Assembly (NCBI GenBank): GCA_036172245.1 | Contig: JAYWIR010000029.1 | Span: 992,001-1,056,000, forward strand | Reading direction: 5' to 3' | Origin: Raillietiella orientalis | Lineage: Eukaryota | DNA length: 64,000 bases | Part shown: positions 6,560-52,500 of the stretch, piece by piece | How the letters are laid out: every line of letters starts with the position of its first letter | How positions within the stretch are numbered: position 1 is the first letter of the stretch | The notes under the pieces: model-generated | The model's input: only the letters and a program-made list of their open reading frames with translations | Told to the model about the DNA's origin: nothing | Database searches by the model: none | Translations under genes and position numbers: made by a program

Positions 6560-9500
6560 TTATTCTGGAAGCAAATGCTGTAAAGCCCAAAGTAGAAAGA
6601 TACTGAAGTGAGCATTAGCATCCTGATAATGAAGCGCATGTCTTTCAGCAGGATACACTTGTAGGTGACAAGGCTTCCCTTCAGCAACAAGTGTGTTCAC
6701 TAGATGCTGACTATGAACAAAATGTACATTGTCATCTTGCAGACCATGAACCACAAACAGCCGTCCTTCTTCATCAGGAAACTGTGAAACGTGTGTCAAT
6801 ACTGAGCTTGCTTTGTAGGCTTCCTGGTTGTTATCTATCAAATCCATATACCGCTCAGTATATGCAGTGTCATATAGATGCCAGCTAGTAACAGGAGCAC
6901 AAGCTATGGCAACATGAAACACATCTGGAAATTGAGCTAAGGCCATCAGACTAAGATAGCCACCATATGACCAGCCATATATGGCCACACGGCTCAAGTC
7001 AATGCAACCAGTAGCACAAGAAAGCCACTGTAACACTTCCACATGATCTTGCACTTCCACTCTACCTAAGCAATTCTTGAGATGACTTTCAAAAAGGAGA
7101 CCACGTCCAGAGGAACCACGGCAGTCCACTTGTACAACACAAAAACCCTGGCTTGCCAAAAGATGGCACTGTCCATGTCGATACCCCTATGTCAAATCTG
7201 CATTTGAAAATGTGAAAAAATCACTCACCTTAAAGGAATTTGTGACAAGTTGTACCCGTGGACCTCCATAAATATTGAGTACAACAGGACAGTTTCCTTT
7301 GACATAATCAGGTGGCTCAAAAAAAAGTCCATGCACTTTATCTCCACTAGAAAGAGGACACTCAAACAAAGTGGGTGGTTTGAAAGAATTAAGTAGGAAC
7401 TCGCTTTGCTGAACCACCCATAAAAGCTGTACTTGCACTGCATCTACAGTATTCTTGCTATGCACACAAATGGCATACAGTCTACATGCTGGTGTTGTTT
7501 CTAAATTGCTATGCACTGTAGCAAACAATTGGCACTTCTACTACAGCATGAAGATATCTGATTTTGAATATCTTACGCTCACCTTATCCATATGCACATA
7601 ATGAGAGTAACCTGGCTCTGTGAGTCGACGTAGATGACAGGGTTGCTGCAATGCTACAACATATAAATGTTCCTCAAGAGGAGTATCATGAAGGGCTTGG
7701 AAGAACACCAAATCTGCTTCCTGGTGATACCATACTGGACGATTAACTACTTCCCATTCACCAGATGTGAGCATTGTCTTTTTCTCTACATGCTTTCCAT
7801 CACCTGGAAAGCAACAGTTAGAAATAATCAGAAAGCAAAGAGCATGAGACCTGTGCCAGAGCCCACATGAACAAGGTCACAGGTCACATGATAAAGGTGA
7901 CGCCATCCACTTTCCTGACTGCTCCAAACAAACGAAATTCTGTGTGAATCAGTGGAAGGGAGAAAATGAATGATATTAGAAATCTACAAACACTATGGAT
8001 TTTCTAGAAGTGTTGTAGCTTACATTCACCCAAATGTTACAAGTCTGTGTAATGAGCGTATATACCATAGGAACATGTGGTTTTAAATTTTCTTCTCCAT
8101 TGTGACTTATTTCATTATCACAAAATGGAACTGGAGAAAATGCATCCAAAGGAAATAATACTAGTTGTAAATATTGTTGTCGTCTGTCAATAAGCTGAGC
8201 CCAAATACTGCAAAAGATGGTAAATCAATAATTTATGTACTCACTATTGACCACATGGAGTCCATCCAACGCGCACAAGATATTCCATCCACGGATACAT
8301 ATCATAGAGAGATTGTTTCAACTGTAAATGAATGACCTGCATTGATCCACTAATTAATTTTAACTGTGCTATTTTGAGTTTAACCCTGGCATTAGGAGTA
8401 CCAGTCCTTGGATATCTGCAAAAAATATACTCACTATTTCTAGTTTTGAAATTTTACCTGTATTCCTCCATAAATTCTTGATTTAATGAAGTCCCAAACT
8501 TATGCAAATTCACTTGTGACTCATCATATTCTTCATACAAAATATAATAAATGGAGCACGAATTACTTGAATTTGGTGCTGAATTTGCTGAAGGGCAGGG
8601 TTGCCACCAGAAGCCTTCATAACGATCAAATTCTTCTTGAATGACAAAAGGTGGTATTCCTGCACTACAGGTATCTTGAGATGGTTTTTCAGATCCTCTG
8701 CAATGAGTAATCCTTATTTCTACTCCTACATAAAAACGTAACAATTAACATGTGATCAGATTTACAAGATTTCATTCTAAAAATTAAATATTTTACCTGA
8801 CCACCAAACCCAAATATCAAACTGGTGAACAAATGCAATCAAGTCAGAATTTGCAGGACAGATAGACGGAATAAAGCGTGAGTGGGTAGTTTTTGTAGGC
8901 AGCTCCTGGATCTCCAATCTTTCCTACAAACAATATGGGTACTTCAATTGCCACAAATGGCATGGGTGTCTGTAATAGCAAAATTGAGATAATCTCTCTC
9001 AACATGTAGTGATAAATTCCTCAATCGGATGGCCAAAATTCATATCAGTTTAACAAGATACATTTCATAACACAAATTGCTCTAGGAATTAAGAGGTACA
9101 TTAAATTAATTCAATTAATCTGAAGCTCTTTTAAAAGTTCTTAACTCAACAAAGCTGCACCTTATCAAAATCTGCCATTATTTAGAAACCATTTATACAT
9201 AAATACAATTGCACATCAGTTACAATTAAAGATAGCTTAAATGTTCGAGAAAAAGCTTTTTGGTCTGTATTATGTTCTGCATTTGAAACCACTTTTAAAG
9301 CAAACAATACATAAATAATATTAGCGTTTAACAAATTCTGCACCTTTGTCATAAAACTTCAAGACACATGATGCAGAAGCTTAGAAGTTAATTTTCAATT
9401 TCATTACCTTGAACATGCAAAATTCTGAAAAAAAAATACTGATATCACTGAAGCATTAAAAGAAAATATTCATGCTGCTTAAAGGCTTGACAAGTGGCTC

Positions 9501-12910: not shown

Positions 12911-14420
12911 TTTCTTGCTGTGATGTGAATGATTTTTAAAAAAGCTGCATCACATTTTTATTAACTTTATTGAATTCAATATCAACAGCTCAAAATGGTA
13001 TGCAAACAGTTAATCAGCAGTTACCTTTTTTGAACCTAAAAATAATTTTAAAATGAATTACACTCACACCAAAAATATTTTGGTTAAACATTAGGCAACA
13101 AATATGATTAACTATGTAAAATATTTTCTTCACCTCAACATACCTGACAAACAAATCGTTTAAATTTTAGCACATAATCCAAAAACCTTCAAACATACTT
13201 TATTACATAGTGTAAGATATATGCACAAATACACAAAAACAAACACTAATTAACCTGTTGCTTCTAACCAACTAATAAAACAATTCTTACACAAGAATCC
13301 CTGTTTGGAGACCTTTTCGAAGAAGGATTCACTATCAGTGAGGGCCAAATATTTCAATCAATGCAATATGAATCCGATAGGGGCAGATTTATAATGCATA
13401 ATATAATCCTGTATCATTTTTAAAATGGATATTTTCGTGTATTTGCTTCAAGTAGTAATGATTCTTCCCAAATCCTGTTTTTTTCCAGGTTGGGGAAGAA
13501 TTAAAAAGGAAAACTCACAAATTCAAAGAAAAGCAATAAAGGCATGTGCAATAGCCATTAAAAAATGGTGTAGAACTTCAACTAAAGTATATTTATATAA
13601 AACATCATGAACGGGAAACATTTTTATCAAATCACTAAGTCAGTAACCAATCCAATAATGAAACTATGTAGGAAACTGATAAATGAAGTCGGAAGTGTTT
13701 TTAAGCACTCATTAACTTCATTTGAACAAAAATCACAAATTCCTGATCATTGTATTAATGGCAATGACTAATTTAAATATTTCTGAAATCGAAATAAACC
13801 CCACTGATTTGTCGGTATTTGAATACGAAATACTAGTGTACTTAAAAAATTCAAAGCATGCTAAGTACATGGGGTTGAAGTTTAAGGCAAGGAAAACGGC
13901 TAGCATACGTTACATCGCGACGGAGAAAGACATGAGGCAGCACACAATACTCATAATGCATTTTGCTTTAAAATAATAAAATCGTAAAAATCAGTGTTAT
14001 AAGATCCTTGAGTCATGATAATCCACTTAGTTACAATCAAATGAAACTAAGTTATAAAGCTCTGAATTCAATACTGATAACTTTTTTAGTAGAAGGCAAT
14101 TTCCTTTCTTGGAAAAAGCTAGCAAAACAAAAACCTTGATGAAATTTCCGCCTTAGGTTGCAGAATTGAAATTAATTGCCAGAAAAAGTCCGTTTGTAAA
14201 TGAAGGTGCGAGGAAAAGTTTGAATGCTGTTAAGATCCAAACAGTAAACTTGTGTTAGGTTGCTTCAATTACATGAAGATTGAAAAAAATTATTATTACT
14301 ATAACATAGAAGTCTGAAATGAAATATTGGAAAGTTAGCTTGTTCAGTCAGACTTGTCCGGTGTGGATCTGCATGATGCACTGATGACAAATCCATTCCA
14401 TATTGGTTTAAAGAACCAGG

Positions 14421-17400
14421 ATTCATTGAATTTTGTGAGTCTGCGGTCCGTGGAGTGGTGCTCTGACCCCGTTGACCACGTAGAAAGGAAGGAGTAAAAG
14501 TGTCTTAAAATGCGGCTTACCTGAGCTGGGGCCGAGTGCTCTTGGCGCTAGTCGTCTAGAAAGCTGGCCGACTCGGATTACCTGGCTTGCTTCCCAGCCC
14601 CAGCTTTGTATTCCGCCAGGCATCTGGCTCAGCATTTGCTGAAGACCCCCCCATCATGGCGGAAGGACGCAAGACCTTTTCCGTGACGCAGGACCGCTGC
14701 GTAGTGGTCCATCTCACGGGAATTACCTCCTGCATTCAGAAGAATACGGTGCATACGGAGTTGTGAAAATATGGAACCTTGCACACGCTATGGTCCAAGC
14801 CCAGCCCCTTCGAAGGCTTTGGAAAGCTTTCCAGCGGGCTGGCGGCATTGCGTTCACGGTCCACGAGAACGTTGGTCTTCCCCACGAACTGAAGATCGGC
14901 AACGAGCTGGTAGATCTTTGGTACATGGGGAAGTCCAAGTACCGTGGCCACTGCGATGCTGCGGGACACCTTAAAGAGAAGTGCCCGAACATCCAACGCC
15001 ACGTATGCGGCGAGAAGGGCCACATGCAAAATATGTGCCCTAAACATGCCACCCCGACTCCCCCGCTGGAGCGAGAAAACTCAGGCGAAACGCGCGGCAA
15101 AGAGGGGGAAAAAATTGAGGAGAAAAAAGGTGGGCAACACCAGTAGCCAGAGCCTCAACCTTCCCAGGAAACGTCGGAAAAAGATATTACCGACGATGCT
15201 GGTGACAACGAGCTGGCAGCTGATAAAGTTTAGAAAAAATAAGGTGGAAAAACCTCTTCCGCGAGAAAGTCCGTGTTCGGCGGCTCTTGAACCGGGGGAG
15301 AAATCCTCCTCCCACGTACACACCCCCTCCCTTCCCGCAGCCGCCTACGGAATCCCCTAAGGCGAACCCTCTGTGCAGACGGAGGGAGAACTGCGCACGA
15401 GACGCGCCTGCCGAAGGCGAAGACGCCGCCTTCGAGAAAGAGGCGGTAGAGCTCGTGACAATGCTGCAAAATCCGGAAACCTCGAGAGAAAGACCTTCAG
15501 AGGGCCGGACGCAAGGGAAGGACCGGAGATCGCAGACTCCGATCGCGATGTGAACGCATCTTCCACGGAGACACTCTCCCGGAAGTCTGGACGGAAGTCC
15601 AAGAATTCGAGGAGGCGCATCCCGCCCCGAGGAGAGGGGCATGAACCAGCATTCGAGGGGGAAGCAGGCAGCGTGGAAACGCAGAAATCCCTCGATGGGA
15701 ATCTGCCACTTCCCGATGCTGAGAAGGCAACCCCCATGGTGGTGGACGAGCAGGGGCAACAGGTCGTTGACGCCCCTGCTTGCATCCCACCCGATCAGGT
15801 GTCGGAAGTTACAGCGCCAATTTCCCAGGAGCAACACCTGGGTTCCAGCACATGCCTGAAGTGGTCGGACAATGCTGATTTCCCACTCCTGAGCACAGCT
15901 GGAGTACGCCACTTTATATGAATATTGTCAACAATTCAGAGAGGTCGTCGATCCGAACGAAATTCAGCTGGTTTCGCATCGGTCCCTCGCCGATGCGAAA
16001 CCAGCTGAAGACGGAGATCCACGTGGAGGCTCAATCGGCACCGCTCTCGGTGGAGAGGAAGCACACAGATACGCGCTCTTTCGTAGCTCAACATGAGGTC
16101 TCCACCTTCATGGATATACCCACCGCATCGGAGAGCGAGAGATAGCACCATGGTAGGCTGCTGCTCCACCTCCGATGACGACAACTCCCAAGCGGAGAGA
16201 TCAGTGGAATGGCACTCTGGCCAAACAGGACAGCGAAAGACCCTGGCGAAGTCCAAAAAGAAAAGACAGGCGGCGCCTTCCACATCCTCCCGCTCTCGCC
16301 ACTAGATCATGGTGCAGTTCCTGTCGTCTGTAGGAAAAATCAGGGTTGCATCCTGGAATCTGAATGGATGCAGCCACCCGAAAAGGAGGAGGCAGCAGGG
16401 GTGGCTTCTTATTCAAGAGAGCATCTGCTGCCTTCGGCAAATTCACCAGCCAACCCCGGAAATAGAAAGGGGGCGCAACCAGGAGTCGCGGGGGCAGCTC
16501 TTCGTCAACCAGGCGAATCCTGTCGGAAAGGGGTCGCCATTCTGGTGATCAACAGCCTCTCATCGGACATCCTGGTGAGGGATGTATTCCAAAGTATTCC
16601 AAAGATGGGGAGGCCGCGTCCTGGGACTCCGGATGGCGGGGTACGGAAGCATTCGCCTGTTTGTCGTGAACCTGTACGGACTACTGCTGAAGAAGGAAGT
16701 CTTCGCGAGGGCCCTCGTGCACCTCATCAAGAACAAGATGACGGTGAAGGACGTCCTCATCCTGGTGAGGGACCTCAACATCAGCTTGAACGGCGACCGG
16801 CATCACGGAGTGCGCGCAGCAAACATCCACCATCGGCTGGCAGAGGAGGTCGCCCTCACGTGCACGGGGACGAACCTCACACAAGTCGACTACGTGCTGT
16901 AGTCGGAGAGCCCTGAACAACCACATCCAGGGGATCCGGGAGTTGAATACCGGAATCCCAGACCATCCCCGGCTGAAGCTCCGGATGCAGGCGAAGAATC
17001 CTAGGACGGAACACTCGGAGTCTCGGATGGCACTCATCTTCATGTCCGAATGGCATGCGTGCTAACCCAGTACCAACGCGTCATGGAGACCATAATGTCC
17101 ATGACCACCATCGAGTGCGTGGAAGACCTGAGGCATAAAGTCCACATTTTCAACCATGCAGTTTAGAGGCAGGAGACTACGTGAGGAAATGTACAGGGAG
17201 ATTCACCAGCAACATCCCTACCACTCTGAGTACTGGAAGGAGTATCAGAGACGACAGGATCGCAGGGTCAGGACATTAGACGTCTGGAGGAAAACAAACT
17301 CCAAACCAACAACTTTTACGCCAACCATTACGGCCGAGACTGCCGAACCTTGAATTAGGTGCTGGAAGCTTTCCAGCACCACTACACTGAGCTGTTTAGC

Positions 17401-19430
17401 AGAAGTTTAGACCCGGGAGCTCAGGAATGCATTCTCCGTGAAGAATCGCCTGATCTCCCAAGAAATCAATGAAATGGGTAAGGGCTTCTCCTTGGACGAG
17501 ATCAAGACGATGTTTGAAGCACTGAGCAAGGACGTGGCGGCGGGCCGTGACAGCGTACCTGTCGTACACCATCGGTGGTACCTGCCGCCTACCTACGTCT
17601 GTTCCGACAACTGCTGGGCTGCATCGCCAGGGAACTGACTGCCCTCCTCCTTCCACCGAAGCAAGAGCGGCTACTCACCAAGAGTGGCGGGGACCTCCAC
17701 ACGGCCATTCGGTGTAGACCTATCTCCATCCTGCACTCGGATGTGAAGTGGATGACGAAGATCTGGAACCATGAACTCAGCGATCACTCCCACATAGACG
17801 TGTGCAGTGCCTGACGGACGGAGATATGGGATAACATCAAGTGTACCTAGGCTCTAATCAGATACTGTCGTATCCTAGGAAACAACCTGGTGCTGGACCT
17901 CATCGACACAAGGAAGGCCTTCGGCTCGGTGGACCACGACTTGCTGTCGAAAATCCTTCGCAAGATGGGCTTCCAAGGAAAATTTCTGCAGCACGTGGGA
18001 CGCACCCTCGAAGAAGCGAATTTCTGACTGAGCATCAACGGTCAAACCATCGAAAGCATCAAAATAAAAGGAGTACGACAGGGAGACGCCCTAAACCTCA
18101 TGCTCTCCGTCATCTACATGAAGGCCTTGGAAGCCCTGGTCGCCAACGAGGTCTGACTGAAGGGTATGGCCCTGGAAGAGGTGACCATCACACACCTGGC
18201 CTACGCTGACGATCTAACTTGGTTCGTCATGTCTGATTAACAGGATCAAGGAGAGTTCCTCGACATCCTGCAGACCATGGAGCGTGGACTTGGACTAAAA
18301 GTAAATCCGATCAAATCCTGCCTGCTGGCCTTGGGAGTCCCTGACGTTACCGTCCTTCACTGTTCCACATCGCCGACCGGGCGAAGTATTTAGGAAAACT
18401 CATCGGCGACGAAGACGCGGCAGTCGAAATGTAATGACAGTGCATCTTTGACAAAATGAGGGAAGAAATCCACCTGTACAAGGGGACCATTCTCTCCTTC
18501 AAGGACAAAGACAACCTCGGGAATGGAGCGATTGCACCGAAGTTTCTCTTCGCAGTGTCCATCGTAAAAATGCCAAAGAAGGTAACCAAAGAAGACCATC
18601 CAAACCATCCAGCGAAACTTGGTGCGGAATGAAAGACCAAAAGTGAAGGTAAAGAACCTATGTCGTTTGAGGACGGAAGGAGGCACTGGCATGCGAGAAA
18701 TCGCCAGCGCCGTGAAGCTGCAGGACTGGAAACACCTGATACGTCAGCGAGTGGGACGAACGGCCGTTCGTGTTCCACAGAGCCTATGCAAGGTTGGTCC
18801 AAGGAGGCGACTGGCTGATGTCCGCCATGCCATTTCCAATCCAGGTAATGGAAAGTCATCGACCCCACCTGGTCGAGGTGATGCAAACTCTCGTGAAGAA
18901 ACTGAAATTGAAGATCGTCTCAGAAGTCGAGAACTCTGGCATGAGGAATTCAACATGGTGATTCCGTTATTTATCAACGTCCCATGGGAAACGCAAGCCT
19001 GGCTCTGCAAACACAAGAAACTCTCCATGTTAGCGACTATCCACCAGCGGAGTCATCTACGCGGTGAGTGTCCTCGTATAACTAAGACCCATCGCAAGCA
19101 GGCTGCAAAGATTCCACGCAACAGCAACTGGTGATTCCATTCACTTATTTCTATGATTTAGCTCTAATTTCATGTAGTTATTTTCGTCTTCTGTTCTTCA
19201 GCTTCTATTGCATTTATTTATTCATACACCTCAGCATTGTTCCCGTGCCTCTTGTGGTCTGTATGCTGGCGTATCCCGCATTGTATTTGAAAGGCATTCT
19301 TTTCTATACTGCTTTCCTTACTTTCAAGTCAGCATCTCGGCATGGCCAAGTTCAATTCCAAAGCCAGAAAGACTCTTTGGGTTTCCATGGATATGGAAAG
19401 GAAAGGAAATCTTTTCTTTTTTTGTTTTAC
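14421..19430 (+). mobile_element. Degenerate near-full-length non-LTR retrotransposon, L1/Tx1 clade (ORF1 about 14656-16305; ORF2 APE+RT about 16309-19134; T-rich 3' UTR)
   Basis: ORF1 has decayed CCHC knuckles (GHCDAAGHLKEKC, HVCGEKGHMQNMC). APE motifs: VASWNLNG, LIQE, GVAILV, VVNLYG, VDYVL, PDH. RT motifs: RPISILHSDVK, DTRKAFGSVDH, GVRQGD, HLAYADD, KYLG, then RLRTEGGTG. Many frameshifts and stops; ends are approximate and no TSD was found. Confidence 0.9.
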
Positions 19431-19850: not shown

Positions 19851-22808
19851 TCCGGTTGGTGCAAAAATGACTGCAGTTTTTACATATCGAGTATAAAGAC
19901 GCATACACCAGTTAAAAATTATATTTATTTATCAAAATAAAGACCATTGGTCTGCAAACATCCCCCCAACGGGAAATAAACTTTGCTTATTTCTTACTAC
20001 AAGATAGAATTCTGGAGTCCTGGAATTAACGAATTCATCGAAAGCGCCTTGATCTGACGCTTGATCTCTGATAACCTTCTCTTTCGTAAGAAATTACTGA
20101 AATGCTTTAAAAAATGATAATCTGTCGGAGAGAGGTTCGGAGAACGAGGTGGGTGAGGTGAGGTCTCACAAATAGGTTCATTTCATTTTTTTAAAGTCAT
20201 TTGTGAGACGTGTGGTTGGGCGCTGTCATGAAGAAGAATTGGTCCTCTTCGATCGACTTATGCTGGTCGGAAACGTTGCAGCTTTCCGTGCATTTTTTCG
20301 ATTTCCTGACAATATTTTTCTGCTGCTGTTGTTTCAGCAGGATTTAAGAAGTCGTGGTGAACGATGCTGCTAACCGACCACTTAACAGTGACATCTTAAC
20401 ATCTTTTTCTCATGAAACAAAGAGATTGAGGAAACTGGTTTTGGTGCTCCTCGGTTCCAGCCCCTCTGGTAAACGTTTTCGATTGTAGTAGAGAATCCAC
20501 TTTTCATCACAATGCCATCAAGAAAGAGATCATTTTTTTGTTACGCAAAAGAAGCCCAGAACGGACGTCGTGTCGCCGAATTGCCTGATGTGCTTTTGGC
20601 TCCGAAGTCGCAAACTCAAACGCAGTAAAGGGCCATTCCATCAGATGTGTATCAGATGCGGGTCGTGTTCAATAGTATTCTGTGGACCAAAACGTAAACT
20701 GAAAAAGAAGATGCTCTAACAAAGACCATTTTATTGCCAGACTTTACAACTTACGTAAACAGTTACACCGACAGTTAAATTGTAAAAATATGGCAAGTTT
20801 AACAAGTATAAGTTCAGTTACGTTTTATTCCGCTTTAAGAAGATCATTATAATAGACAATTTGGACTGGCTAAAATTAATATTTTAATCTACGAATCCTT
20901 TTTTAAATTTGATTTTGGTCCCCAAAGCTGACATCTTTTCCTCTGTACTAACATGTCAATATCTGCTCTTTGCTTTATGCAATACGAAGTATTGTGGACA
21001 CAATGGGCAAAAAATACAAATTATCGGGGTAACTTATTACTAACACACTATCGCATTACAATGGCAACGCGCAATCTATTGACATCGTATCACGTGAATT
21101 AAAATGATATTAACGTGACATTTAAATTCCATTAACCGTTGGCAACATTTCATGATAGAAAAATGGTCCAAAGAACTATAGTAGTAAGTTTTGCCTTTTT
21201 TTAGAGCTGACACAAAACAAATGAAAGGATACTTTTTTTTTGTTTTGTCCACTGCAAGATTCGAGAAACATCAATTTTTAGAAAAAAAAAACACCAAGGT
21301 CTCGAGGGCCCGATAGGAAGTCTTTTTTTTTTGGTTCGCTAAGTACTTCAAGAGTCGGTTGCATGCTTGGCGGCGTACGGACTGACTCTAAACACACTGT
21401 TTTGTTTCCGCGCCACTCCGCCTGCGGTAGCCCGCAGGAGGGCGTCTAATTCTTCAAGATAGGGGGCACCCCGGAAGGGGGGGGGTTCGCCCTATGAATC
21501 CAGGAAGGGCTCGGAGTCCGTTCCTCTCACGCTTGGGGAGGGATCCCACCCGGACGGGGAAGATCACATCTCCAACCCTGGTTGTCTCCGAAGGGGAACC
21601 CCGAAGGGAATCTCATTCCTCATTCTCTCCGGAGGGACACACCCTGGGAGGGGGGTGGTCCTCTCCATTTCAACTTCTTGAAGGGAACCCGGAAAGGATC
21701 CGCTTGTAGGAATTTCTTCTCCGGAGGGAACCCGCAAGGGAACCGCTCCTGTTCACTCCTCTGAAGAGAACTCCGAAGGGACGCTTCCGAAACTCAGAAG
21801 GGGCGCTACAGCTTCCCTCAGGGAATCGCTCTCGCTTGCTTCCTTGCACTCTATGAAGAGGCGACGACTCGGAGGGTCCCACCCGCAACAGGGGGGGCCG
21901 CTCCTTTGAACAACTGGAGAGGTACCCGTGAGGGCTCCTGCTCCATCTTGAAACCGGAGGGGTCCCCCAGTGAGGGCGTCCGCTCTCCGTTGCACGACCG
22001 GAGGAGGAACTCCCCCCTCCTTTATTCCTGGGAGGACCCGAAGGTCAATTTCCCATTGTTCCGGCCTTCATCGGGGGCCTCCCGGCTTTATCCACCGCCG
22101 GTGCCACGCCCGAATGATTAGGCCAACCAGCGCCATTGCAGGAGAAACTCTGAACCCAACGACGCAGTGGCGTCAGTTTCTGCCGGAGTGTTCGATCCCA
22201 CGACGCATGGTGCCACGCATAAAGCCGGCGACGTGGACCTCCAGTTTTCAATCCCTGGTTTAGCTCATGCGGCACCCATTTATACACCTTTTTTGTTTTT
22301 CCAATCAGGCCCAAATGTCGTGCAACTGTTGAATGATCACATTGAGTTCTTCTGTTACCTCTCGAGTTGTTTTACGTGGGTCCGCTTCAGTGATGGTCCT
22401 TAAATCATGACTGCCTGTAGCTGAAGGATGTTCACGACTCTCATCACTTTCGAGGCTTTCGTTTCCATCGCGAAATTTTTGGAACCAGTGTTGAGCTGTA
22501 CGTCCACTAATTGATTCTTCGCCAAAAACAAATTCGATATTCCTAGCACTTTTTGTTGCTCTATATCCCAATTTAAACTCTTACAACAAAATTGCACGAA
22601 TTTGCTTTTTTTCCCCACGGCTAATTTAAAAAATTGTATCCAGCAATACTAAAGAATGAAAAGAATAGGCATGAGCCGGAATCAATAGTGCCAATTTCAT
22701 TGCTTACAATGATGTATCACATGACTATAACAAAAGATAACGGTAACTACAAAAATCTGCAGCCCACTTAAAACGATAAAAACCACAATCATTTTTGCAC
22801 CAACCTAA
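19851..22808 (-). mobile_element. Degenerate mariner DNA transposon (Hsmar1/cecropia-like), split by an insertion at about 20591-22254
   Basis: 30-bp TIRs: tccggttggtgcaaaaatgactgcagtttt (19851-19880) and aaaaccacaatcatttttgcaccaacctaa (22779-22808) followed by TA. Transposase motifs on minus: RTAQHWFQKFRDGNESLES, WVPHELNQ | HQAIRR..LLLRN, CDEKWILYYNRKR, LLHDSAQPH, PHPPRSPNLSPTDYH. Confidence 0.93.
21333..22254 (+). ncRNA. Unidentified GC-rich, highly structured putative RNA element (tandem hairpin array plus a 3' multi-stem domain)
   Basis: Continuous run of hairpins with GNRA loops (cccGCAAggg, cccGTGAggg, ccccGGAAgggg); G-U wobbles favour the + strand; a GRAG...GCTYC stem base recurs; no convincing ORF. 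The family was not recognised. Confidence 0.45.
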
Positions 22809-23699
22809 TAATCCTACTAATGTCTATAATATCACCACAGTATCTCCTCGCACTTCCAAACGCTATATCAGTTGTCATTCTGTCTTCCTATCACACGTGT
22901 GCTGTGCTAATATCCTCAAATTGAAGGATATTCCTCAGCAAAACATAATTTGATTTGTTTCTGTGTACGTTTTTTGAAGTGTTCATAAACTTGGCTACTG
23001 ACGGCAGATCACGGTTTATTAAATTACTCGTTCCAAGTTTTCTGCACAACGTAGGACGCAATCATTACTTTTGCAGCCTGTTGCAGGAACAATTTTCTTT
23101 AAAGATGACCAAATTCTAAACTCTAAATTCTACCTCACGAATTACTGACAGTGTATGAGACCCATGAAACTCTTAAAAGTTTAACAAGATGAAGTATTGA
23201 TGGAAGTTAGCGGGAAATGATCGTACCACGCCGATTAATGCTACAGCGAAATAAAAAAAAAAAAAAAAAAAAAAGTTCAAAGTAATAGAACAGCTACAGA
23301 CCTTGTGCAGTTGTTCTATTACATTCATGGTTATTTGGAAAATGTAAATTAAATCCTTTTTTCCTATGAATAGAAGACCAACTCTTCTGACCGTTCATAT
23401 TTCCTTGCAGAAATCACTCCCTGCACAGGCAAATCCAAAAAAATCTAAGGATCTATAGCAAAGCTCTGCATCACCGCGAACTTTGATTTTACCAGATTTC
23501 ACGAATGATTCAGAATTTGCTTCAAACTACATCGTCCACTTTTTTTTTGAACAATAACAAAATTACTTCATGCTTCTGTAAAAGCTACGTTTATAATTCA
23601 GTTCACTACCAAAGTGTAGTTCTTATTCTTTCTCCTTAAGATTTGTTTGTATTATTTATGGCATCCTGTTTTCCCCTTAGTGACTAGTTAATCTGAGTT

Positions 23700-26600
23700 A
23701 TATGGGATGTCCATGCAAGCAGGAAATACCAGGAAAAAGCACAAAGAGTCCAGGGCAACGCTCATCTGCATGCTCGGCTGGTACGAGTGCTATGCATTCT
23801 ATTAACGCGTTGTAGAAACCATCCTCGCCAAGGCAGACATTCACGGAGCTGAAGAGTGGGATCACCCCAAGCATGTTGTCCATCTCTTTACCAACATGCA
23901 ATGTGGCAACAGGAAAATTAGAGAGGAGAGGTACCTGAACGTTCACCAGCACCACCCCTCCCACTCCGCCTACTGGAGCCTACCGGATTAGGCACCTCTA
24001 GAAGAGCCTGAAGAAAAATATCAGGATATATTGGACACACACAGATCTCCATCATATACGAAGACTGAGATTGCTGGATATCGGGGCAAGTGATGGAGGC
24101 CTTTCACCACTGTTACACTGGACCATGCTAATCTTCTCTGTGTCGTTCCAATTTTAGCATATGTACAGGCGAAGCATATACATATATTACACCGGGCTGT
24201 TCCATGCACGCTAACTGGACGATAGGACCCAGAAGCAAATTCTCCGCAGCGTAGGAGAGCTCCTGGGCGCTCAAGAACAAGTTTGAACGAAGATTTCACC
24301 AAAGCAGAGATCACGACAGCCTTCATGCAGCTGCTCATGGACGTGGCAGCGGACCCCGATAGTCTGCCCATCACGCACTATCAGAGTATCTCCCATCAGC
24401 TCATACTCCGGATGCAACAAGAAAGAAAGAAAAGAAATGCAAAGAAAAATAACTGCCTGACTTCTTCCATCGGAAGAGGATGCGATTTTCTCCCGAAGGG
24501 TGGCAATGACTTCCAGTCCATCACCCAGCGGAGTCCCTTAAATCCGATGCGAAATGGATGGTCAAGATTTGGGCCAATAGAACTAGGAATTGCCTCGGGT
24601 TTCTCCCACGCAGGAGTGGGCTGTCGCAGGCAGGCGCGTGTAGAAGAACATAAAGTGTGTCCTAGACCTCCTAGAACACACCAGTATTCTGGGAAACGCC
24701 CAGTTGACCGACACCGAGAAGACTTTTGAGTCGGTTGATCATGCTATGCTGCTCAGAACCCCCAGTATGATGGACTTTCCAGCACGTAAGAGTCTGTCTG
24801 CAAGAAGCGAAATTCATCAGCAAAATCAACGGTATGGCATCACCAGACATCAGAATGAGAAGAATCCGACAGAAAGACGCCCTCAGCTCCATGCTCTTCG
24901 TTCTGTACATGGACTCGGTGTCATAATATGTGACGAGGGCAAGTCGGCTCAAGGGGCTCACCCTGGATCATCACCCATTTGGACTAGGCCGACGACTGCT
25001 CTTTGTCATGGCGAAAGAGCAGGATCAAAAGGCATTTCTGGACACCGTCGAGGCCATAGAAGCCAGTCAATGATTCAGGATTAACTCCCAAGAATCTCAT
25101 CTCACTGCAGTTGCCGTACCGGACATCACCCTCCTGCAATTCCACGAATTCAGGATTGTTGATGACGCCCAATACCAAGGACTCCACATCGGAGAAGCAC
25201 AAGTATCCTTGGCGTTCCAGTGGAAGGATATCCTAGCAAGGATCCGAAAGGAGACAGGTCACTTCCAGGGAGCAAACCTCTCCATACTTCAGAAGGCCAA
25301 CCTCTGGAACGGGGGCACCCACGTTCTTGTTCATAGAGGTCTTCAACACTCTCGGGAAAGGTAGCCGAACACTTGTTCAGGGTTCGAAGGGACCTGCTCT
25401 GGAATGGTAGAAAATTACGCGTGAGGTTGGAGTTTCCATGCCGGACGCATCAGGAGGGAGGCACTAGCATGCACGGAGTGACATATGCAGTCCAACACCA
25501 AGACATGCGGCAACTCACCACGCAAGTAGGCGTACATGTTCCACCGAGCCTACTCGAGTTAGCTCAATGGGATCAATGGTCTGGTGTCCGCTCTGTTAGA
25601 GGCACCGGGACAGTGGACCAGGATCGATGCAATGTGACGTAGGAAGCAAGAACTACTCCATAAAGGAAAGCTGAAAGTAGTCCCAGGAATAGGAAGATGG
25701 AAGAGCAGGGAACTCTTGGCAGTCATCCCGCTTTTCATAAGAGTGCTGTGCCACAGAAAAATGGCTCTAGAGACGACGGCAAACTTTGATCATTCAAGAT
25801 TTCGAGAACTTTGCCAACAGTTGGAATGCGCTCGCAACGCGCGTTCTGTGCTACATGCACCAGCTGTAAAGATACACGACTTACAAGTGCCGCGAACTGT
25901 GGCAGGACTAGGGATCGCAGTGGAAGCGAGTCAGTCCCCGAGACCTGGAAGAACACATCATGCAGCGCACCACCGCTCAGGAAGCCATGGAATCAACGTG
26001 GATAAGATTCGGACGACCAACTTTGAACCCACATGCCATCGGGGCCTTCCTATGGGAGTCCGAACTGCCACACCAGAGAACCAGGACTTCCTCCTGGTGT
26101 TTCATCACTGAGGGATCCCTGCGGCACAAGGCTACGACATTGGGCTGGGAATCCTGGCGACAAAGATTGCCCTATATGCGGGAGCATTGAGGACGATTTA
26201 CACATCTACACTTAAAAAACCCTATCCCCAGATTTCGTCCCATTGAGTGGTCAAGCAGACGACGATCTACAGGACAATCCGGAATCGATCCGAGGACTCT
26301 TCTGTGGACAAGGAGTCGTTCCCCTGTACAGTTCCAGGTTGAGAATCATTTTGGCCTTCTTCGTGAGAAGCATCCTCATGAGAAGGACAAAGCTTCGACG
26401 GGGAGTGCTCCAGAGAAATCCTGATGAGACTCCTGAAGAAAGAGATTGGTATACGAAGCTGTAGCAGGGTGCCGAGCTGCACAATAAGCTACACCCTGCG
26501 GAAGACCCAAGAAGCAGAGCAGCAAGTCCAAGCAAGACACTAAGCATGCCCTCCAGCTGCCTCCCCATTTCCCCCCTCCCTCTCTCCCACCAGTAGCTTA

Positions 26601-27228: not shown

Positions 27229-30200
27229 ATGCAAGGAAATAAAAGTTGGGAATTTTGTGGATTGGACGATTGGATTAAAAAACAGTGTATATCGTTAGGT
27301 ATCTATTTTATTTATGTGTTATATGCCGTTTGTTTCTGAAAAACGAAGGAGCTTCAATTTTCTTAAATACAATGTATTGCATTACATCCACCATTTGTTT
27401 AAAAAGAATTCTTGTGTCAAGTTTTGCCAACAGTGCTTATTTTTGAATATTTCTCTATGAGGTGTTCAGATTTTGAATATTGTGTATCAGTTGAATAAAT
27501 AATTAGGTCTGCTATAATTTAAAAGTAATGGAATGTTATTTGTAACTTTTTAGGTATTGTAACACCATCATTAGTTCAGCAACATTGTATTCCTCAAATC
27601 TTAAATGGAAAAGATTGCATTGGATGTGCGAAAACAGGTTCAGGAAAAACATTAGCATTTGCAATACCAATCCTACAAAAATTATATGAAGACCCTTTTG
27701 GAATTTTTGCATTAGTGTTAACTCCTACCAGAGAACTAGCTTTTCAAATTGCTGACCAGTTTCAGCTCTTGGGAAAAGTTGTTGGATTAAAAGTTGCAGT
27801 AATCACAGGTGGCATGGATATGATGATTCAAAGTCAGCAGTTGTCACTAACCCCACATATTGTGATAGCCACACCTGGCAGATTAGTTGATCATCTACAA
27901 AGTTGCAAAACATTTTCTTTGCAAAAAGTGAGATTTTTGGTCTTAGATGAAGCTGATAGATTGTTAGAGGGCCATTTCGATGTTCAGGTAACAGCAAAAC
28001 AAATGTTGTATTTTTTATTCTAAATGTTTAGAAAGTGAAAAATCTTCATTCAATTTCATTTAGAAATTGCTCAAAATAATCGCGTTTTCAAATTGGAAGT
28101 CTTTAGTGTAGGGTATAATACATTAGCAAAGAACTTCACAAAATGAACTAAACTATGGACTTTAGAATATGCTTTGGAAATAGTTGTGTGCAAGTTATTA
28201 TGTGAGTGAAAAAGGTGAATGCATTAAATAGATTCCTTATGTAAAATATAGTACTTTGAGAGGAAATGGATGAATAGTTAGTTGGATTACATGGGAGTTA
28301 AAAAGAAGACTTTTAATTATAAATGTGGATAAAAGGAGAAATGTAACCAGTGACTTGAAGCAGTTTCAAGTCTAAAGATTGAAGCAAATGTTACTGCATG
28401 GTAGTGTTTGTAATGTGTTGCATGAGGTGAAATTTAATGAAATTACGTAATTGCAATTTGGTGAGTGAGCAACATTTTTAAACACTTTAAAATCTTCTAG
28501 AATCAACCAAGTATGAATATGTGTTCAAAGCTAAGTTCTTTCTATGTGAATTGAAGAGTCAATAACAAGTATCAATTTCAATTCCATCCAGTTGGTTGGA
28601 TAAGCTATTGCTTGAAATCATTAAGCTGTTCAGTGATATGCATATTAGGTCATAAATAGAAGAACCCTCGAAACTTAAAATGACCATGCCCTTTATAATG
28701 AATTGAATTAATTTTTATTTGCTGAACAGTATGCAATCCAGAGAACAGCAGTAGTCTTTATATATTCATGAATGACTTCTAGAATAGATTGGTTTTCAAC
28801 ATTAGACTTTTGGAAACTTGTCAGAAGTTTAATTTCACGTAAAGAATCATTGTGGAAAATATAATTTCTTTCATACTTAGAATACAAGTTGAATTGTATT
28901 TTTGCATTTAACATTTACTGTCTTCAGTGTTGTTAGTAAACTCGATAACAATTTTACTCACCTTTAGAAGACAATTTTGGAGATTTTTATTCAAGTAACA
29001 ATGATGCAAAGTTTCTGTTTTTTTGTTGCATACGAAAAAATTTGCTTGTTTAGTTGGATGAATTCTGGTTAGCTGCCAATGTTTGGAAATCATATGACAA
29101 CAGTGAATCCTCAAATTTTGAAGATATACTTAGAAAGTTTACCATGGAAAATAAATGAATGAATGAATAGAATATTCTGTTAGATTGTTAATATTATTTA
29201 GAGAGAGGCAGTTCTAGTAATCTTGATCATTTAAAAAAAATGTGTTTAAGCATTCTGTGGACTATGTTGAAGAATATGCAAAAATATTTCCAGAAACTTA
29301 GTAGTAGGTAATAAACTAAACTCTTGGTCCTAAAATATTGCAACTCTTGTGAACTGTTATTCTCAATGTTTATTGCTATGGGATGATGAATTCCTGTTTC
29401 GATCAACGGAATTATGTCCTGCAATTAAAAACCAGCTGAAGAAGAGTTTAGTGAAAGTGTTGATAGCACATTCTTGCATTCATTCTTGCTTTATTACAGT
29501 TAACGCATCGGAGAATTATTAGAAAAATATGTATGTATTTGTATCAACTGTGAGAACTTTCTTCAATTATCTTTAAATTTCTGGATCTGCTTGAAAACAT
29601 ATAATTTTTAGCAGAGTATTTTGTGGGTTTCATGCCTGGTTAACATTATTCACAGTTTTGAAGATGCTTATATTGAAGAAATTTAAAACTGAGGAAACAC
29701 GATCACGATTACTGTAAAAATAATGTAGCAAAGGACAAAATCCATTTTCAAGTAAATTATAACGATGTTAAAAATCATGTGTCACATTTTTATAATTCTG
29801 AAAAGATAAAAACAGTCAAAAGTGTGTAACCATTAGTTTCCCTGCTAAGTAATGAATTATCTTGTTCACCTTTTTTGTTTTTTTCATTTATTGTTTTCGG
29901 CATGTTTCAGTTCTCTATGTTCAGACAAGCATGTTAACATAATCTTGAAAATTTACTTTTAAACTAGTTGAAGAAATTCATCTTTCATCCTAGCCATCAC
30001 TAACTCTCTCGGCAGCATTTGAAATGCTTTAGTGTATTAGAAAGTAAACAATTCTGAATGTGGTTTAATTATTTTCGTATTGTATTTTTATCCTTGTTTT
30101 TTATACCCAAAGTGCTTTCATTGTAGCTGTCTGTGATCTTTAATTGTTTGCCCACCAGTCGGCAGACACTATTATTCAGTGCCACAATTACTGATCCTTT

Positions 30201-31038
30201 GATACATCTGAAGAAACTTATCGGAAGTGATCCGTTTTATTGGGAAGCAAGTGACACCTCTATTACAGTTCCACAGTTAAATCAGCACTTTGTACTTTGT
30301 CCAGCTGATGTTAAAGATGGGTATTTGGTACATTTGATTCAAGAATTTTATGAGCATGACAACAAAGGTTTGATCATGCTTTTCACAAGCACTTGCAGGT
30401 AATCTTTCATTGAAGAGAATACTTATGAATTTTAGATCAGAAGTTGCCAAGTTCTGTCAATGATGTTAGTAAAGTTAGGATTTCCTTGTGTATTTTTGCA
30501 TTCCATGATTTCTCAAAAAAAACGCCTAGCAGCATTAGCAAAATTCAAATCCCTTCAGGTTTGCATGATGGTTGCAACAGATGTAGCCAGCAGAGGTTTG
30601 TCATGTTACATATATTTCATTACAAGCTTTGTGTCATTTTATACAGGATTAGACATTCCGGCAGTTAATTTGGTACTGAATTACAATGTTCCTAAAGTGC
30701 CCAAAGATTACGTTCATCGAGTTGGAAGAACAGCTAGAGCTGGAAGAAGTGGAACCGCTATTACACTAGTGACACAAAATGATGTTGCTCTGTTACATGC
30801 TATTGAGGAACTGACTGGTACACAGATGAACCCATATTCTGTCAATGAAAAAGAAATCTTGAGAATTCTTACTCAAGTAGCAGTCAGTAGAAGTGAATGT
30901 GAAATTCAGCTGGATTTGGAAAAATTTGATGAAGCAAAAATCATAAATAAAAGAAAAAAAGCAATACTAGAAGGCCAGCATCCAGATAGTGTTCACAGAT
31001 GCAAAAAAAGGTCGAAAAATAAATTACGTCCGAAATAA
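27229..31038 (+). CDS. DDX49: DEAD-box RNA helicase DDX49/Dbp8; exons 27229-27298, 27554-27987, 30127-30398, about 30441-30595, about 30647-31038
   Basis: MQGNKSWEFCGLDDWIKKQCISLG IVTPSLVQQHCIP..DCIGCAKTGSGKT..EDPFGIFALVLTPTRELA; LDEADRLL, LFSAT, ATDVASRGLDIP, YVHRVGRTARAGR, and the DDX49-type C-terminus INKRK. Confidence 0.93.
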
Positions 31039-49550: not shown

Positions 49551-52500
49551 ATGAAACCTCTGATCATATATTTCGGAATGTGTATAGGAATCAGTTTGTT
49601 GTTTTTCACCGTGTACAACGTGTATAATTACTCTTACCTTTGTGCCGAGCTTGGCAATTCCCAAAGCGCAAAATGTTACCCTCAACACCTAGTTTATAAT
49701 TTCATGCAAGATGATACAACGGCACTATTGGACGCAAGGTAAAGTACTCAGCTTCCCGTTCGTGTATTTGACCTTTCGATTTCTTTACTACAGAGCGCAT
49801 TTTCTCAATTTTCTCCGCAGTGTTCTTTTAACAGCTTAGTAGCCATCATAGCTGTGTTAGGATATATCCCTTCCGGTATTGTTTTAAGTCTTGTAATATT
49901 GGCAGGCACGGTAGATTAATGTGATATAATTTTTGAATAGCTGAGTGTTGTTTCATGGATTCTCTTTCACGAAGCAACATGCATCAGTAGATAATAATCA
50001 TCTGAAAACGCTCTCCTTGCATTCAGTCTCATGAGTGGCTGAACCTGCCGTCTTAAGTCTGTCGGTGTGCCATTACATAAGTGGCTCCAGAGTGCGGGAA
50101 ACGTGCTACCAGTTGAGGAAGCAGAAAGCTCTCTCATGGGAAAGATTGCGTCCATAAAATTAACGAGTGCACGACTACACTAGCACTTTCGCGAATGTTT
50201 CTAACGAACAACAAGAGCTCTTCCGGTAATGGCTCGAAGCAAACGAGTGGACGGAAACCAAGCAAACATGCTTGAAATATTAACTAGTTCTAATCCTTTG
50301 ATCATTTGCTCCGTTGAATAGCTGATGCTTTCATTTATGTATGTATATATATTTTTTTCAACACCAACAAAAGCTTTATTTCAGTGATACCGCAGTCCAT
50401 TTCAATTATTCTATGGAGAGGGATATCTTCTACCCGTGGAAGGAAGACACTCAGTGCTCTCATTATTCTGTCAGGTCAGTCAGCACGAAACTCTTTGCGT
50501 CACAAGTCCTATCTGGCACATCGCACAAGCCCGCTCTAATAACTCTGGTAACGGATGCTGTCACTCTCTGAATGTCATCCATCGTCGGCATCGGAAGCCC
50601 TTGGAAGGTGTTTTCCCTTAGACAAGAACACATGCATGTTTTTTCCAATATGGAAAATGGCAAGCGAACCTGCCTGGTGAACTGAGATACGAACTCATCT
50701 TAATCAGCCATAGAAATGCAGAATGCAACTGATTTAAATGCGCGAAGCAGGTCTTGTGCTTTTCGATAGGCGCACTGATTATTCAATCCAGTTTTTTCGT
50801 TTCGGTGAAGCCATGCTTCTAGAAAGAACAAGCTTTCCATCCATCTTGGAAATACAGTGATCGTTCCGAAGTGAAGAGTCGGAAGCAAAATACAAGGGTT
50901 ACCAATCACAGGTGAATGAAAAAGTGTGCGCAAGGGAACCTATTCTCGTCCATACCAGTCATATGATCACAAAATAAGATTATAATGTCAAGTTCTCACA
51001 TATGACGTTAGGATGATAACTGATCGGTCGAATCGCAGCTTCGGTTGTTAGAGCACAAGCAACACTAAAAGCAAAATGAAAAAAAGAACAAGAGTCGCTT
51101 GTTAGCTTTCTTAAAACAGCATCTTAGACAACCTCGTTTTTACGTAATGACTCTCAAAGACTCCAAGCAGAGCGCGATTGAAAAAAATACCAAACAAAAG
51201 TGTCATTTCCGAGTTGATTTTGGTTTGTTTCCTTCACACGAATACACGTGCAAGTCGATAAGTAATTGCTGAGGAGGCTGGAACCGAATGGGGTGATTTC
51301 CTCAGAGCCGGTTTGTGGAAACACGGGGAAGCGTTTCGGAGCTCATACTCATTCCCGTGTTTTATTCTGAGTACATTAGGGAGTCTCTAGATTCACCTGT
51401 TAAAACAAAACTCAAATATGTGTTGATTCAATTAGTAGAACGCTGAACCGCATTCGACCTGGGTGGAGTGACGTGCGTTCGCCTATGGGCAGTTGCAGTT
51501 CGTTTTTTCTGTGTCACATGCTGGACTCATGGTTGGAACACTTCAGCGTCCTTCGAGTTTTGTACACACGGAGCGGGTAGCAAAGCACCACACTTCCCTG
51601 GAAGAACGTGTACTTAAAATCCGAACTCTTTTCAAGATCTTTCAAAATATCAGAAAGTTCATTCTCTCACCGTATTCTCTCATGCGTGTTGATCGCTAAT
51701 TCTTGCGGATGTGTACCTGATGCAGAAGCTGACGCTTCCTTCATTCTGTCGGAATTGTCGGGACAGTTCCGCAGTCTATCGAATCTATCTTCTAACACAC
51801 AATTGAGGATTGTGGTGTTTATGCTGAAGAGTGAGTCTTGTGTTGTGAATTTGTCCGATTTCCTGGGTTTCCTCAGAGAAGAACTCGTGACATCTTCGCT
51901 CCACATCTCTGCCATTTTCAGCTTTTATTATTCAAGTTGGAACCTACAGAAAGACTTTTCCCAAGTCTCTTGAGAAAGTTCTTTTTGTTTGACTCGAATC
52001 TTAATCGAAAATGCAAAGCCGGTTGCAACTTTAGACTTTACCTCTTTGAAATTTATTTTCTAGGTTTGCTACCGTGCACAGCTTTCGACCCGCACTCCTG
52101 ATCAGCTACCCGGGATCAGGAAATACTTGGCTGAGGTATCTGATCCAGGGTGCAACAGGAGTGTTCACTGGCTCCATTTACGAGGACTACAGCCTTGCCA
52201 GCCAAGGTACTGTGCTCTGCAGAGTTCCGACCTTGCTTTAACCCTTTGGGTGTGGAGCTCATCAGATTTAACCGTTTTGTGTTGACAGCACGCGAGTCGC
52301 AGTTGCCACCTCTGTGAGCGGAATGCTTTTTCGCGTACCGCGTGCTCTATCAGAGGTGCCACCGTTTGACTTTATATAAAGTGCTGATTCAAGTTACTGT
52401 GTTATAATTGTTCGTTTGCACTAAAATATTGCAACAAAATATTTTCATTTTTCCCAAACACATATAATTTATTTAAAAACTAGAATTCCAATAAAATCAA

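Follow-up and report, generated by a model that had tools for sequence, protein, structure and literature searches.

Background

Repeated small hairpins are a feature of several well-described systems. The A-repeat of Xist, part of a conserved and expressed mammalian long non-coding RNA (lncRNA), consists of near-identical short GC-rich cores that form hairpins, with pyrimidine-rich linkers between them and a repeat length of ~45-50 nt, and acts as a multivalent protein platform. The SVA element, which is non-autonomous and has no protein of its own, carries a GC-rich internal variable-number tandem repeat (VNTR) with units of ~35-50 bp. MS2/PP7-type coat or nucleocapsid hairpins and packaging signals show a repeated small hairpin with a bulged base, a purine-rich loop and a stem that is free in sequence; RNA hairpins bound by proteins typically have purine loops, a bulged G and a bias in G-U pairing. 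Baculovirus homologous regions (hr) and bacterial REP/BIME elements are clusters of imperfect palindromes of ~30 bp at regular spacing, and they act as DNA (single-stranded DNA in the case of RAYT transposases). Here we describe an array of short hairpins in Raillietiella orientalis (assembly GCA_036172245.1, contig JAYWIR010000029.1, positions 992,001 to 1,056,000 of the forward strand), which lies in a GC-rich insertion within a decayed copy of a mariner transposon. All coordinates below refer to this 64,000-nt stretch, which we call the window.

A preliminary description, made from the letters alone, had reported a tandem array of about 11 hairpin modules at 21590-22055 and proposed that it encodes an RNA displaying repeated protein-binding sites. 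Our analysis confirms the array itself and supports that interpretation in part. From unit to unit the hairpin keeps its shape, although the stems vary in sequence.

A tandem hairpin array in a GC-rich block

Direct reading of 21590-22055 gives 12 unit starts marked by GRAG (21590, 21631, 21680, 21723, 21763, 21797, 21855, 21871, 21916, 21956, 22000 and 22030), with a period of ~42 nt and spacings of 16-58 nt, mostly 40-49. All six modules that had been quoted earlier were found where they were reported, by a regular-expression check as well as by reading, and the run reaches further than first described: when units are folded singly, about 17 short hairpins (17 segments) appear on the plus strand between ~21411 and 22085. 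A repeat search returns direct-repeat families in the block at spacings of 40-43 or 89-92 nt (families D1-D4 and D6). Pairwise identity between units is 50-72%, compared with 44 +/- 7% in shuffled units (shuffle maximum 60%). The units are thus homologous and stand head to tail, as in a classical minisatellite; the array is strongly degenerate and falls below the threshold of Tandem Repeats Finder (TRF), which called nothing within 20164-23111, even at a score of 30, because the units are only 50-72% identical.

The hairpins share one architecture: a 4-bp GRAG/CUYC base, a bulged G, two to three further pairs, a purine internal loop, a CCC/GGG helix and a purine-rich loop (GNRA-type loops seen are GCAA, GUGA and GGAA). 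On the plus strand, single-unit folds have 7-15 bp and -4 to -24 kcal/mol; counting both strands, stems span 4-16 bp and hairpins 23-45 nt. Each hairpin in the core array is followed by a C/T-rich linker, and the linkers are 69% pyrimidine on the plus strand. Several units are cut down or irregular (21855, 21797, 22000 and 22030), the truncated unit at 21855 being the only one in the core array without a hairpin of its own. Two of the four hairpins upstream of the core also fit the module, with covariance-model matches at 21461-21493 (in-region E 0.00018) and 21503-21524 (0.047), and a 12-nt stretch among them, 21541-21552, is 92% identical to 21874-21885 (repeat D15). The positions of the individual modules, and of the elements that enclose them, are given in Table 1.

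Table 1. Features of the mariner copy, the insertion and the hairpin array (CM, covariance model; TIR, terminal inverted repeat)
Feature	Positions	Strand	Basis
Left (3') part of decayed mariner, TIR 19859-19882	19859-20599	-	our reading; inverted repeat
Foreign insertion, ~1.65 kb, splits the mariner frame	20600-22254		edges good to a few bases
AT-rich left part of insertion, 33.6% GC, T-run at ~21322-21333	20600-21332		composition
GC-rich block holding the hairpins, 59.8% GC, CpG observed/expected (o/e) 0.78	21333-22254	+	composition
Four upstream hairpins: 21411-21446, 21462-21498, 21502-21526, 21533-21577	21411-21577	+	folds -10 to -20 kcal/mol
Core array, 12 unit starts	21590-22055	+	reading, repeat search, folds, unit identity
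Module, GAAG type, weak base helix	21591-21617	+	CM R2 30.4 bits
Module, own 14-bp stem, ACAC/GUGGU added on both sides	21631-21666	+	-23.4 kcal/mol; CM R2 30.5 bits (21635-21661)
Module GAAG...CUU, model seed	21680-21706	+	covariance model
Most regular module, GGAG-GG-AA-CCC-GCAA-GGG-AA-CC-G-CUCC, model seed	21723-21749	+	-12.4 kcal/mol, 9 bp, GCAA loop
Module, clean GAAG/CUUC base	21763-21787	+	CM R2 28.6 bits; fold
Irregular unit, two small hairpins	21797-21848	+	folds -8.3 and -8.6 kcal/mol; no CM match at in-region E<=0.06
Module, extended 13-bp stem, GCAACA loop	21871-21904	+	-24.2 kcal/mol; CM R2 19.5 bits
Module, GUGA loop	21916-21944	+	-14.9 kcal/mol; CM R2 29.8 bits
Module, AGUGA loop	21956-21988	+	-14.2 kcal/mol; CM R2 16.2 bits (21956-21986)
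Two looser terminal hairpins, 22000-22025 and 22029-22055	22000-22055	+	-11.2 and -10.8 kcal/mol; no CM match
Non-repeat GC-rich tail, no tRNA	22063-22254	+	ARAGORN 0 genes; fold z -1.50 (+), -0.39 (-)
Right (5') part of the same mariner, TIR 22777-22800	22255-22800	-	HTH_48; Mos1 alignment

The array forms the core of the GC-rich block, which is ~0.9 kb long and is without a recognisable coding frame. None of the 14 stop-free frames (52-108 aa) in or overlapping the block matches Pfam at E<=0.1, and the frames 21673-22044(-) and 21765-22118(+) have no Pfam match at E<=0.001; two block frames run through protein searches gave no match at E<=0.01, only candidates of near length. Across 17 frames in or beside the insertion, Pfam likewise gave nothing at E<=0.1 (best, DUF5978 at E 0.12). 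The AT-rich left part of the insertion holds three stop-free frames wholly within it, with no Pfam match at E<=1, and two more that cross its right edge. Just left of the block, at 21282-21332, lies a 13-nt inverted repeat (92%) made up of an A-run and a T-run, and the 25 nt between its arms include adjacent CTCGAG and GGGCCC; two tails may meet here, or the arrangement may be fortuitous.

Shared hairpin shape, divergent stems

The preliminary description had suggested that a covariance model be built from the modules. Our first covariance model was made from only two of them (21723 and 21680) with a hand-set structure, ((((((..(((....)))..)).)))), and was searched against the whole window on both strands with filters off. 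Its five best non-seed matches (E 0.011-0.41) are all plus-strand modules of the block, and no match with E<1 was found outside the block. A second-round model returns nine modules with E<0.2, again all in the block, and its best match elsewhere in the window has E 0.51. The matches of the two-module model cluster in 0.5% of the search space. The string CCC-GNRA-GGG shows the same clustering: it occurs six times on the plus strand of the window, each time in the block, and not once on the minus strand.

Pairing was counted in alignments fitted by the covariance model, as module alignments made with MAFFT (A1-A3) were too poorly registered for the purpose. Across 10 aligned modules, 96.5% of 86 pair cells are paired, compared with 84.0 +/- 1.8% when the letters of the 3' side are permuted within columns (0/500 shuffles as high), and two-sided changes are found in 7 of 9 pairs versus 2.4 +/- 1.1 in the same shuffles (0/500). 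Sliding the partner by 1-3 columns lowers pairing to 53-71%, and an alignment of seven modules agrees in pattern. Pairing has thus been kept through compensatory change, as in structured RNA repeats, with the reservation that the structure guided the alignment and that the units are paralogues.

In the arm-swap comparison, each 5' arm was paired with its own 3' arm and with those of other units. For 15 hairpins, the duplex with a unit's own 3' arm has a mean energy of -13.7 kcal/mol versus -9.5 kcal/mol with the arms of other units (z -6.0, 0/20000 permutations), and 10 modules defined by the covariance model and split at their midpoint still give z -3.8 (2/20000 permutations). Modules 21631 and 21871 have extra bases on both arms, and these are mutually complementary. 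The earlier claim that structure rather than sequence is conserved between units is borne out by the arm swap, the pair counts and these unit-specific stems. The extra unpaired G that had been noticed before the closing CTYC is also real, being present in 9 of the 10 aligned modules. The proposed compensation at the base of the hairpin, with GGAG closed by CTCC and GAAG by CTTC, holds cleanly in module 21763; it is partial at 21590, 21680 and 21797 and may reflect a single event.

An insertion in a decayed mariner copy

A 24-nt inverted match (87.5%) between the two termini listed in Table 1 marks the ends of the mariner copy. On its right side, Pfam identifies HTH_48, the helix-turn-helix (HTH) domain of Mos1 transposase, at 22305-22580(-) with E 7.7e-11, and a piece ending in WVPHELNQ aligns to residues 99-126 of Mos1 transposase (3hos_A). 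We place the mariner edge at 22255 because that alignment ends there. On the left side, minus-strand frames read as transposase-like, with stops and frameshifts; two short pieces submitted to Pfam gave no match. The mariner text picks up again at ~20599 (PKAHQAIRRHDVRSGLLLRN...), and the protein text is contiguous across the interruption (HELNQ followed by PKAHQAIRRHDV...), with no mariner residues lost. Because the mariner text resumes across it, the ~1.65 kb between these edges is foreign DNA. The Mos1-type domain and the terminal inverted repeats belong to the host element and not to the array. Many stops and shifts interrupt the mariner frame, and the copy is, by its sequence, now dead.

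Short repeats were found near the junctions. A 12-nt direct repeat pairs the left junction, 20596-20607, with 21582-21593 (score 19 versus 11.8 +/- 2.0 in shuffles, maximum 21) and is borderline; an 11-12-nt match between 21573-21583 and 22249-22260 (score 17 versus 13.0 +/- 2.2) is not significant. The letters of these repeats are TTGKCTCCGAAG and CAA(T)CCCTGGTT. They had raised the idea of two nested or tandem related elements within the insertion, which we dropped because the two interiors do not align. Separately, the start of module 21916 has a 16-nt inverted match in the mariner coding region (21909-21924 and 22356-22371, 94%; I4), which is unexpected for a region of 2 kb.

Searches for known families and relatives

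The preliminary description had not recognised the family, and the searches agree: all 4227 Rfam models, those for IRE, ribozymes, xrRNA, rRNA, snRNA and SINE-related RNAs among them, gave no match at E<=1 on 20500-23500. Over the whole window at the Rfam gathering score, the only match is a fragment of U6 at 24120-24181(-); there is no rRNA, and a search of the window with ARAGORN gave no tRNA-like gene. A viroid-like or satellite-like RNA, which had been among the earlier suggestions, is not supported, since the global fold is no better than that of shuffles, no ribozyme or other Rfam match was obtained, and no second copy lies in the window.

Three other candidates were tested. For the head of a tRNA-derived SINE there is no tRNA, and the box-like words lie near the 3' edge of the block, not at a 5' end; these words, at ~22160-22205 (+), resemble the pol III A and B boxes. 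The T-run at ~21322-21333 could be where an element on the minus strand ends in its tail, but it lies within the insertion, and no duplication was found on either side of that insertion. A microRNA (miRNA) cluster would be expected to show stems of ~22 bp or more in hairpins of ~60-70 nt in total; the stems here have 4-16 bp over both strands, in hairpins of 23-45 nt, and 7-15 bp on the plus strand, with no Rfam miRNA match. Helitrons begin with TC, end in CTRR with a subterminal hairpin and insert between A and T, and neither orientation of the junctions gives consistent TC...CTRR ends between A and T.

Relatives of the block were likewise not found in the collections searched. Exact patterns returned none in viral or metagenome contigs; translated searches with the block frames confirmed none among the pattern matches in metagenome (485), viral (25) and prokaryotic genome contigs (355); and blastn against plasmids and phages gave no match. 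Among the literature matches listed (15 of 166), judged by title and the start of the abstract, no arrays of this kind are described, and the motif strings occur, among the matches listed, only in unrelated primer or aptamer text.

Origin and possible role of the array

The reading we prefer, as a tentative one, is that the array may be the fossil hairpin-repeat region of an RNA derived from a mobile element, on which one protein-binding hairpin would once have been presented many times over. The GC-rich sequence would be a non-autonomous element or UTR-like fragment that landed in the mariner copy, which is itself now dead. An ancestral unit of ~42 nt with one imperfect hairpin would have been amplified in tandem, so that in the active parent element a plus-strand transcript or a single-stranded intermediate showed many copies of the same small hairpin. 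Such an array might have offered many binding sites to a single protein and served, for instance, as a packaging or ribonucleoprotein (RNP)-assembly signal; selection would have held the shape while the stems drifted, and the present copy would be a fossil. An untranslated region of a mobile element had been among the possibilities named in the preliminary description, and it is the best fit to the context, as the block lies inside an insertion that splits a mariner; in the insertion itself we found none of the hallmarks of such an element.

For the acting strand, and for RNA as opposed to DNA, we lean to plus-strand RNA. Duplex energy is lower on the plus strand in 10 of 10 modules, unpaired bases within the hairpins are 70% purine on that strand and 33% on the other, and the pairs fitted by the covariance model include five G-U versus one A-C (a biased count, as the fitting was done on the plus strand). 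The pyrimidine-rich linkers, the plus-strand CCC-GNRA-GGG strings and the bulged G point the same way. All these plus-strand features could just as well go back to the founder unit.

A number of observations weigh against the fossil-RNA reading. Local folding (span 50) of 21590-22055 gives -173.1 kcal/mol on the plus strand, compared with -154.4 +/- 8.6 in dinucleotide shuffles (z -2.16, 3/300 as low), and -178.1 versus -154.3 +/- 9.6 on the minus strand (z -2.47, 3/300); over the wider range 21410-22085 the values are z -2.07 and -2.43. The excess is modest, with 3-4 of 300 shuffles equally good, and shows no strand preference. The global fold of 21400-22270 is no better than that of shuffles (z -0.73 on plus, where 6/20 were as good, and -1.66 on minus), nor is the folding of the flanks of the array (21333-21590 and 22056-22262). 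G-U pairs in free folds number 12 on the plus strand and 8 on the minus strand, so that the lean to the plus strand is weaker than had been stated, and local energy is equal on both. The arm-swap result is about as strong on the minus strand (z -5.9), and its arm limits were set from each unit's own fold. The alignment behind the pair counts, being fitted to the structure, is biased toward pairing. Because the units are paralogues of one array, double changes that they share may be inherited. Units of GAAG type and GGAG type alternate, with a spacing of 89-92 nt. As for the insertion, it has no target-site duplication (its flanks share only 6-mers), no terminal inverted repeat in the repeat search and no clear poly(A) at either end, and the block is present as a single copy in the 64-kb window.

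Several of these points are what the strongest alternative would predict. The array may, with appreciable though clearly lower probability, be a decaying and functionless minisatellite whose unit was partly palindromic, so that the hairpins were inherited from the founder; it is possible to the same degree that pairing was partly renewed by slippage, unequal exchange and template switching at quasi-palindromes. Pairing and energies symmetric between strands, and folding only modestly beyond shuffles (z about -2), fit this explanation. So does the homology of the units, through which the shared architecture, including the bulged G, may have come by descent. That GAAG and GGAG units alternate points to a higher-order repeat built by duplicating a dimer, and the switch at the hairpin base may therefore be one event. 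Because the energy evidence is symmetric between strands, it does not separate the strands or RNA from DNA, and a palindromic minisatellite at the DNA level keeps its place in the comparison. However, column composition does not account for the pairing (0/500 shuffles), and unit-specific stems have stayed complementary down to matched insertions on both arms. Under correction by template switching, the bulge and the internal loop would tend to be lost, but both persist, and the purine bias of the loops is marked on one strand. We take these points to argue against the minisatellite.

A bolder form of that reading is doubtful: the array could be an undescribed family of plus-strand RNA, now or recently transcribed, in which 12-17 hairpins with a bulged G serve as the platform of a single RNA-binding protein. 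It is as doubtful that such a family would be the invertebrate counterpart of scaffolds like the Xist A-repeat, or the packaging array of a non-autonomous mobile RNA. On this account, to which we give no more weight, the stems could covary freely, with constraint only on the shape, the bulge and the purine loops.

Rather improbable is the capture of a structured host RNA or spacer, such as a ribosomal DNA (rDNA) spacer with sub-repeats, pasted into a break in the mariner as filler or as a retro-copy. Filler DNA would be expected to lack a target-site duplication, a terminal repeat and poly(A), just as the insertion does; rRNA-related sequence typically contains series of short GC-rich hairpins whose terminal loops are GNRA and whose internal loops are rich in A; and a U6 fragment (the 5' 60 nt) 2 kb away, possibly retro-copied, suggests that RNA capture occurs in the region. 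Against this, the block has no rRNA or other Rfam match at E<=1, the window holds no rRNA, and the insertion's AT-rich left part shows no link with rDNA.

It is unlikelier still that the array is a living host non-coding RNA (ncRNA) or regulatory array, a decoy or scaffold exapted from the inserted DNA and still under selection. Such a role would draw on the same structural evidence as the fossil-RNA reading (clustering of covariance-model matches, pairing, bulged G and arm swap); hairpin cores with pyrimidine-rich linkers recall the Xist A-repeat, and CpG is not depleted in the block. But the transposon around the array is dead and lies between genes in sequence rich in repeats, and the units of the array have diverged to 50-72% identity, several of them truncated or irregular.

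A remnant of a homologous region of a large DNA virus (enhancer or origin repeats), or a comparable integrated viral repeat, is highly improbable. In baculovirus hr the defining layout is a tandem series of direct repeats, each of which contains an imperfect palindrome, and strand-symmetric pairing is as expected for a DNA element; but hr palindromes are conserved for a dimeric DNA-binding protein, whereas the stems here differ between units, IMG/VR holds no relative by pattern or translated search, and what Pfam recognises in the window is genes of host type plus a single mariner domain. Finally, a chance cluster of hairpins in sequence rich in G-runs and C-runs hardly merits belief: GC-rich shuffles do fold nearly as well (-154 versus -173 kcal/mol) and global folds are no better than shuffles, but the units are periodic and homologous, the covariation beats 500/500 shuffles, and the concentration of covariance-model matches in 0.5% of the search space, with the pairing, comes close to refuting it.

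Should selection have acted on the hairpins as RNA, the array would provide a case in nature of a mobile element bearing a multivalent platform for protein binding, and its architecture (4-bp base, bulged G and CCC/GGG top) is clear enough to serve as bait for relatives. If it is a mere decaying palindromic minisatellite, it is ordinary repeat debris, yet it shows hairpin potential outlasting sequence identity. Either way, a single degenerate locus in transposon debris has no present bearing on a long-standing open question.

The wider window

Host-type genes recognised by Pfam in the window are a peptidase S9 at 6563-7186(-), exons of a DEAD helicase within 27529-31035(+), anillin, ECSIT and a sulfotransferase domain, a set that indicates an animal genome. 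The DEAD-box exons at 27529-28020 and 30436-31035(+) have CpG o/e of 0.13 and 0.41, versus 0.7-1.0 in repeat-rich stretches, a pattern expected for gene-body methylation in invertebrates. The U6 fragment covers the 5' 60 nt of U6 snRNA (RF00026, 51.6 bits, model positions 1-60 of 105) and adjoins a GC-rich stretch at 24.2-26.1 kb; it is possibly a retro-copied or chimeric U6 pseudogene. To the right of the mariner, in an AT-rich stretch, TRF reports a 26-nt A-run at 23249-23274(+), which may be the tail of another retro-copy.

Two GC-rich islands, 14000-19134 and 52000-58000, have 50-60% GC and many long stop-free frames on both strands; the frames tested have no Pfam match except for the sulfotransferase domain at 55174-55797. 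By eye, the stretches at 14-19 kb and 24-26 kb had suggested a degraded non-LTR reverse transcriptase, which we do not claim, as Pfam gave nothing at E<=1 and a protein atlas returned nothing. At the DNA level, neither of these stretches is similar to the other or to the block.

Comparison with known systems

The likenesses to Xist, SVA, coat-protein hairpins and hr/REP are architectural analogies, drawn by description and not by sequence. The array resembles baculovirus hr and bacterial REP/BIME in its clustered imperfect palindromes of about that size, their regular spacing and their strand-symmetric pairing. Those elements are conserved palindromes of viral and bacterial genomes that act as DNA, whereas the array stands in an animal genome, its stems differ, and no viral, plasmid or prokaryotic relative was found.

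SVA offers a parallel in its GC-rich internal tandem repeat, in unit length and in having no protein. It differs in possessing hexamer repeats, an Alu-like part, a SINE-R, poly(A) and target-site duplications, none of which was found at the insertion, and its units are not described as covarying hairpins.

Unlike MS2/PP7-type systems, the array has no cognate protein gene nearby and no single conserved loop motif, and the insertion around it lacks coding sequence of a virus or retroelement; it shares with them the repeated small hairpin, the bulged base, the purine-rich loop and the free stem.

Xist cores are near-identical and belong to an expressed RNA, whereas the units here are 50-72% identical, with differing stems, in a dead transposon. 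What the array has in common with the A-repeat is its layout: short GC-rich cores that form hairpins, pyrimidine-rich linkers, a similar period and, if our preferred reading is right, a multivalent platform for protein.

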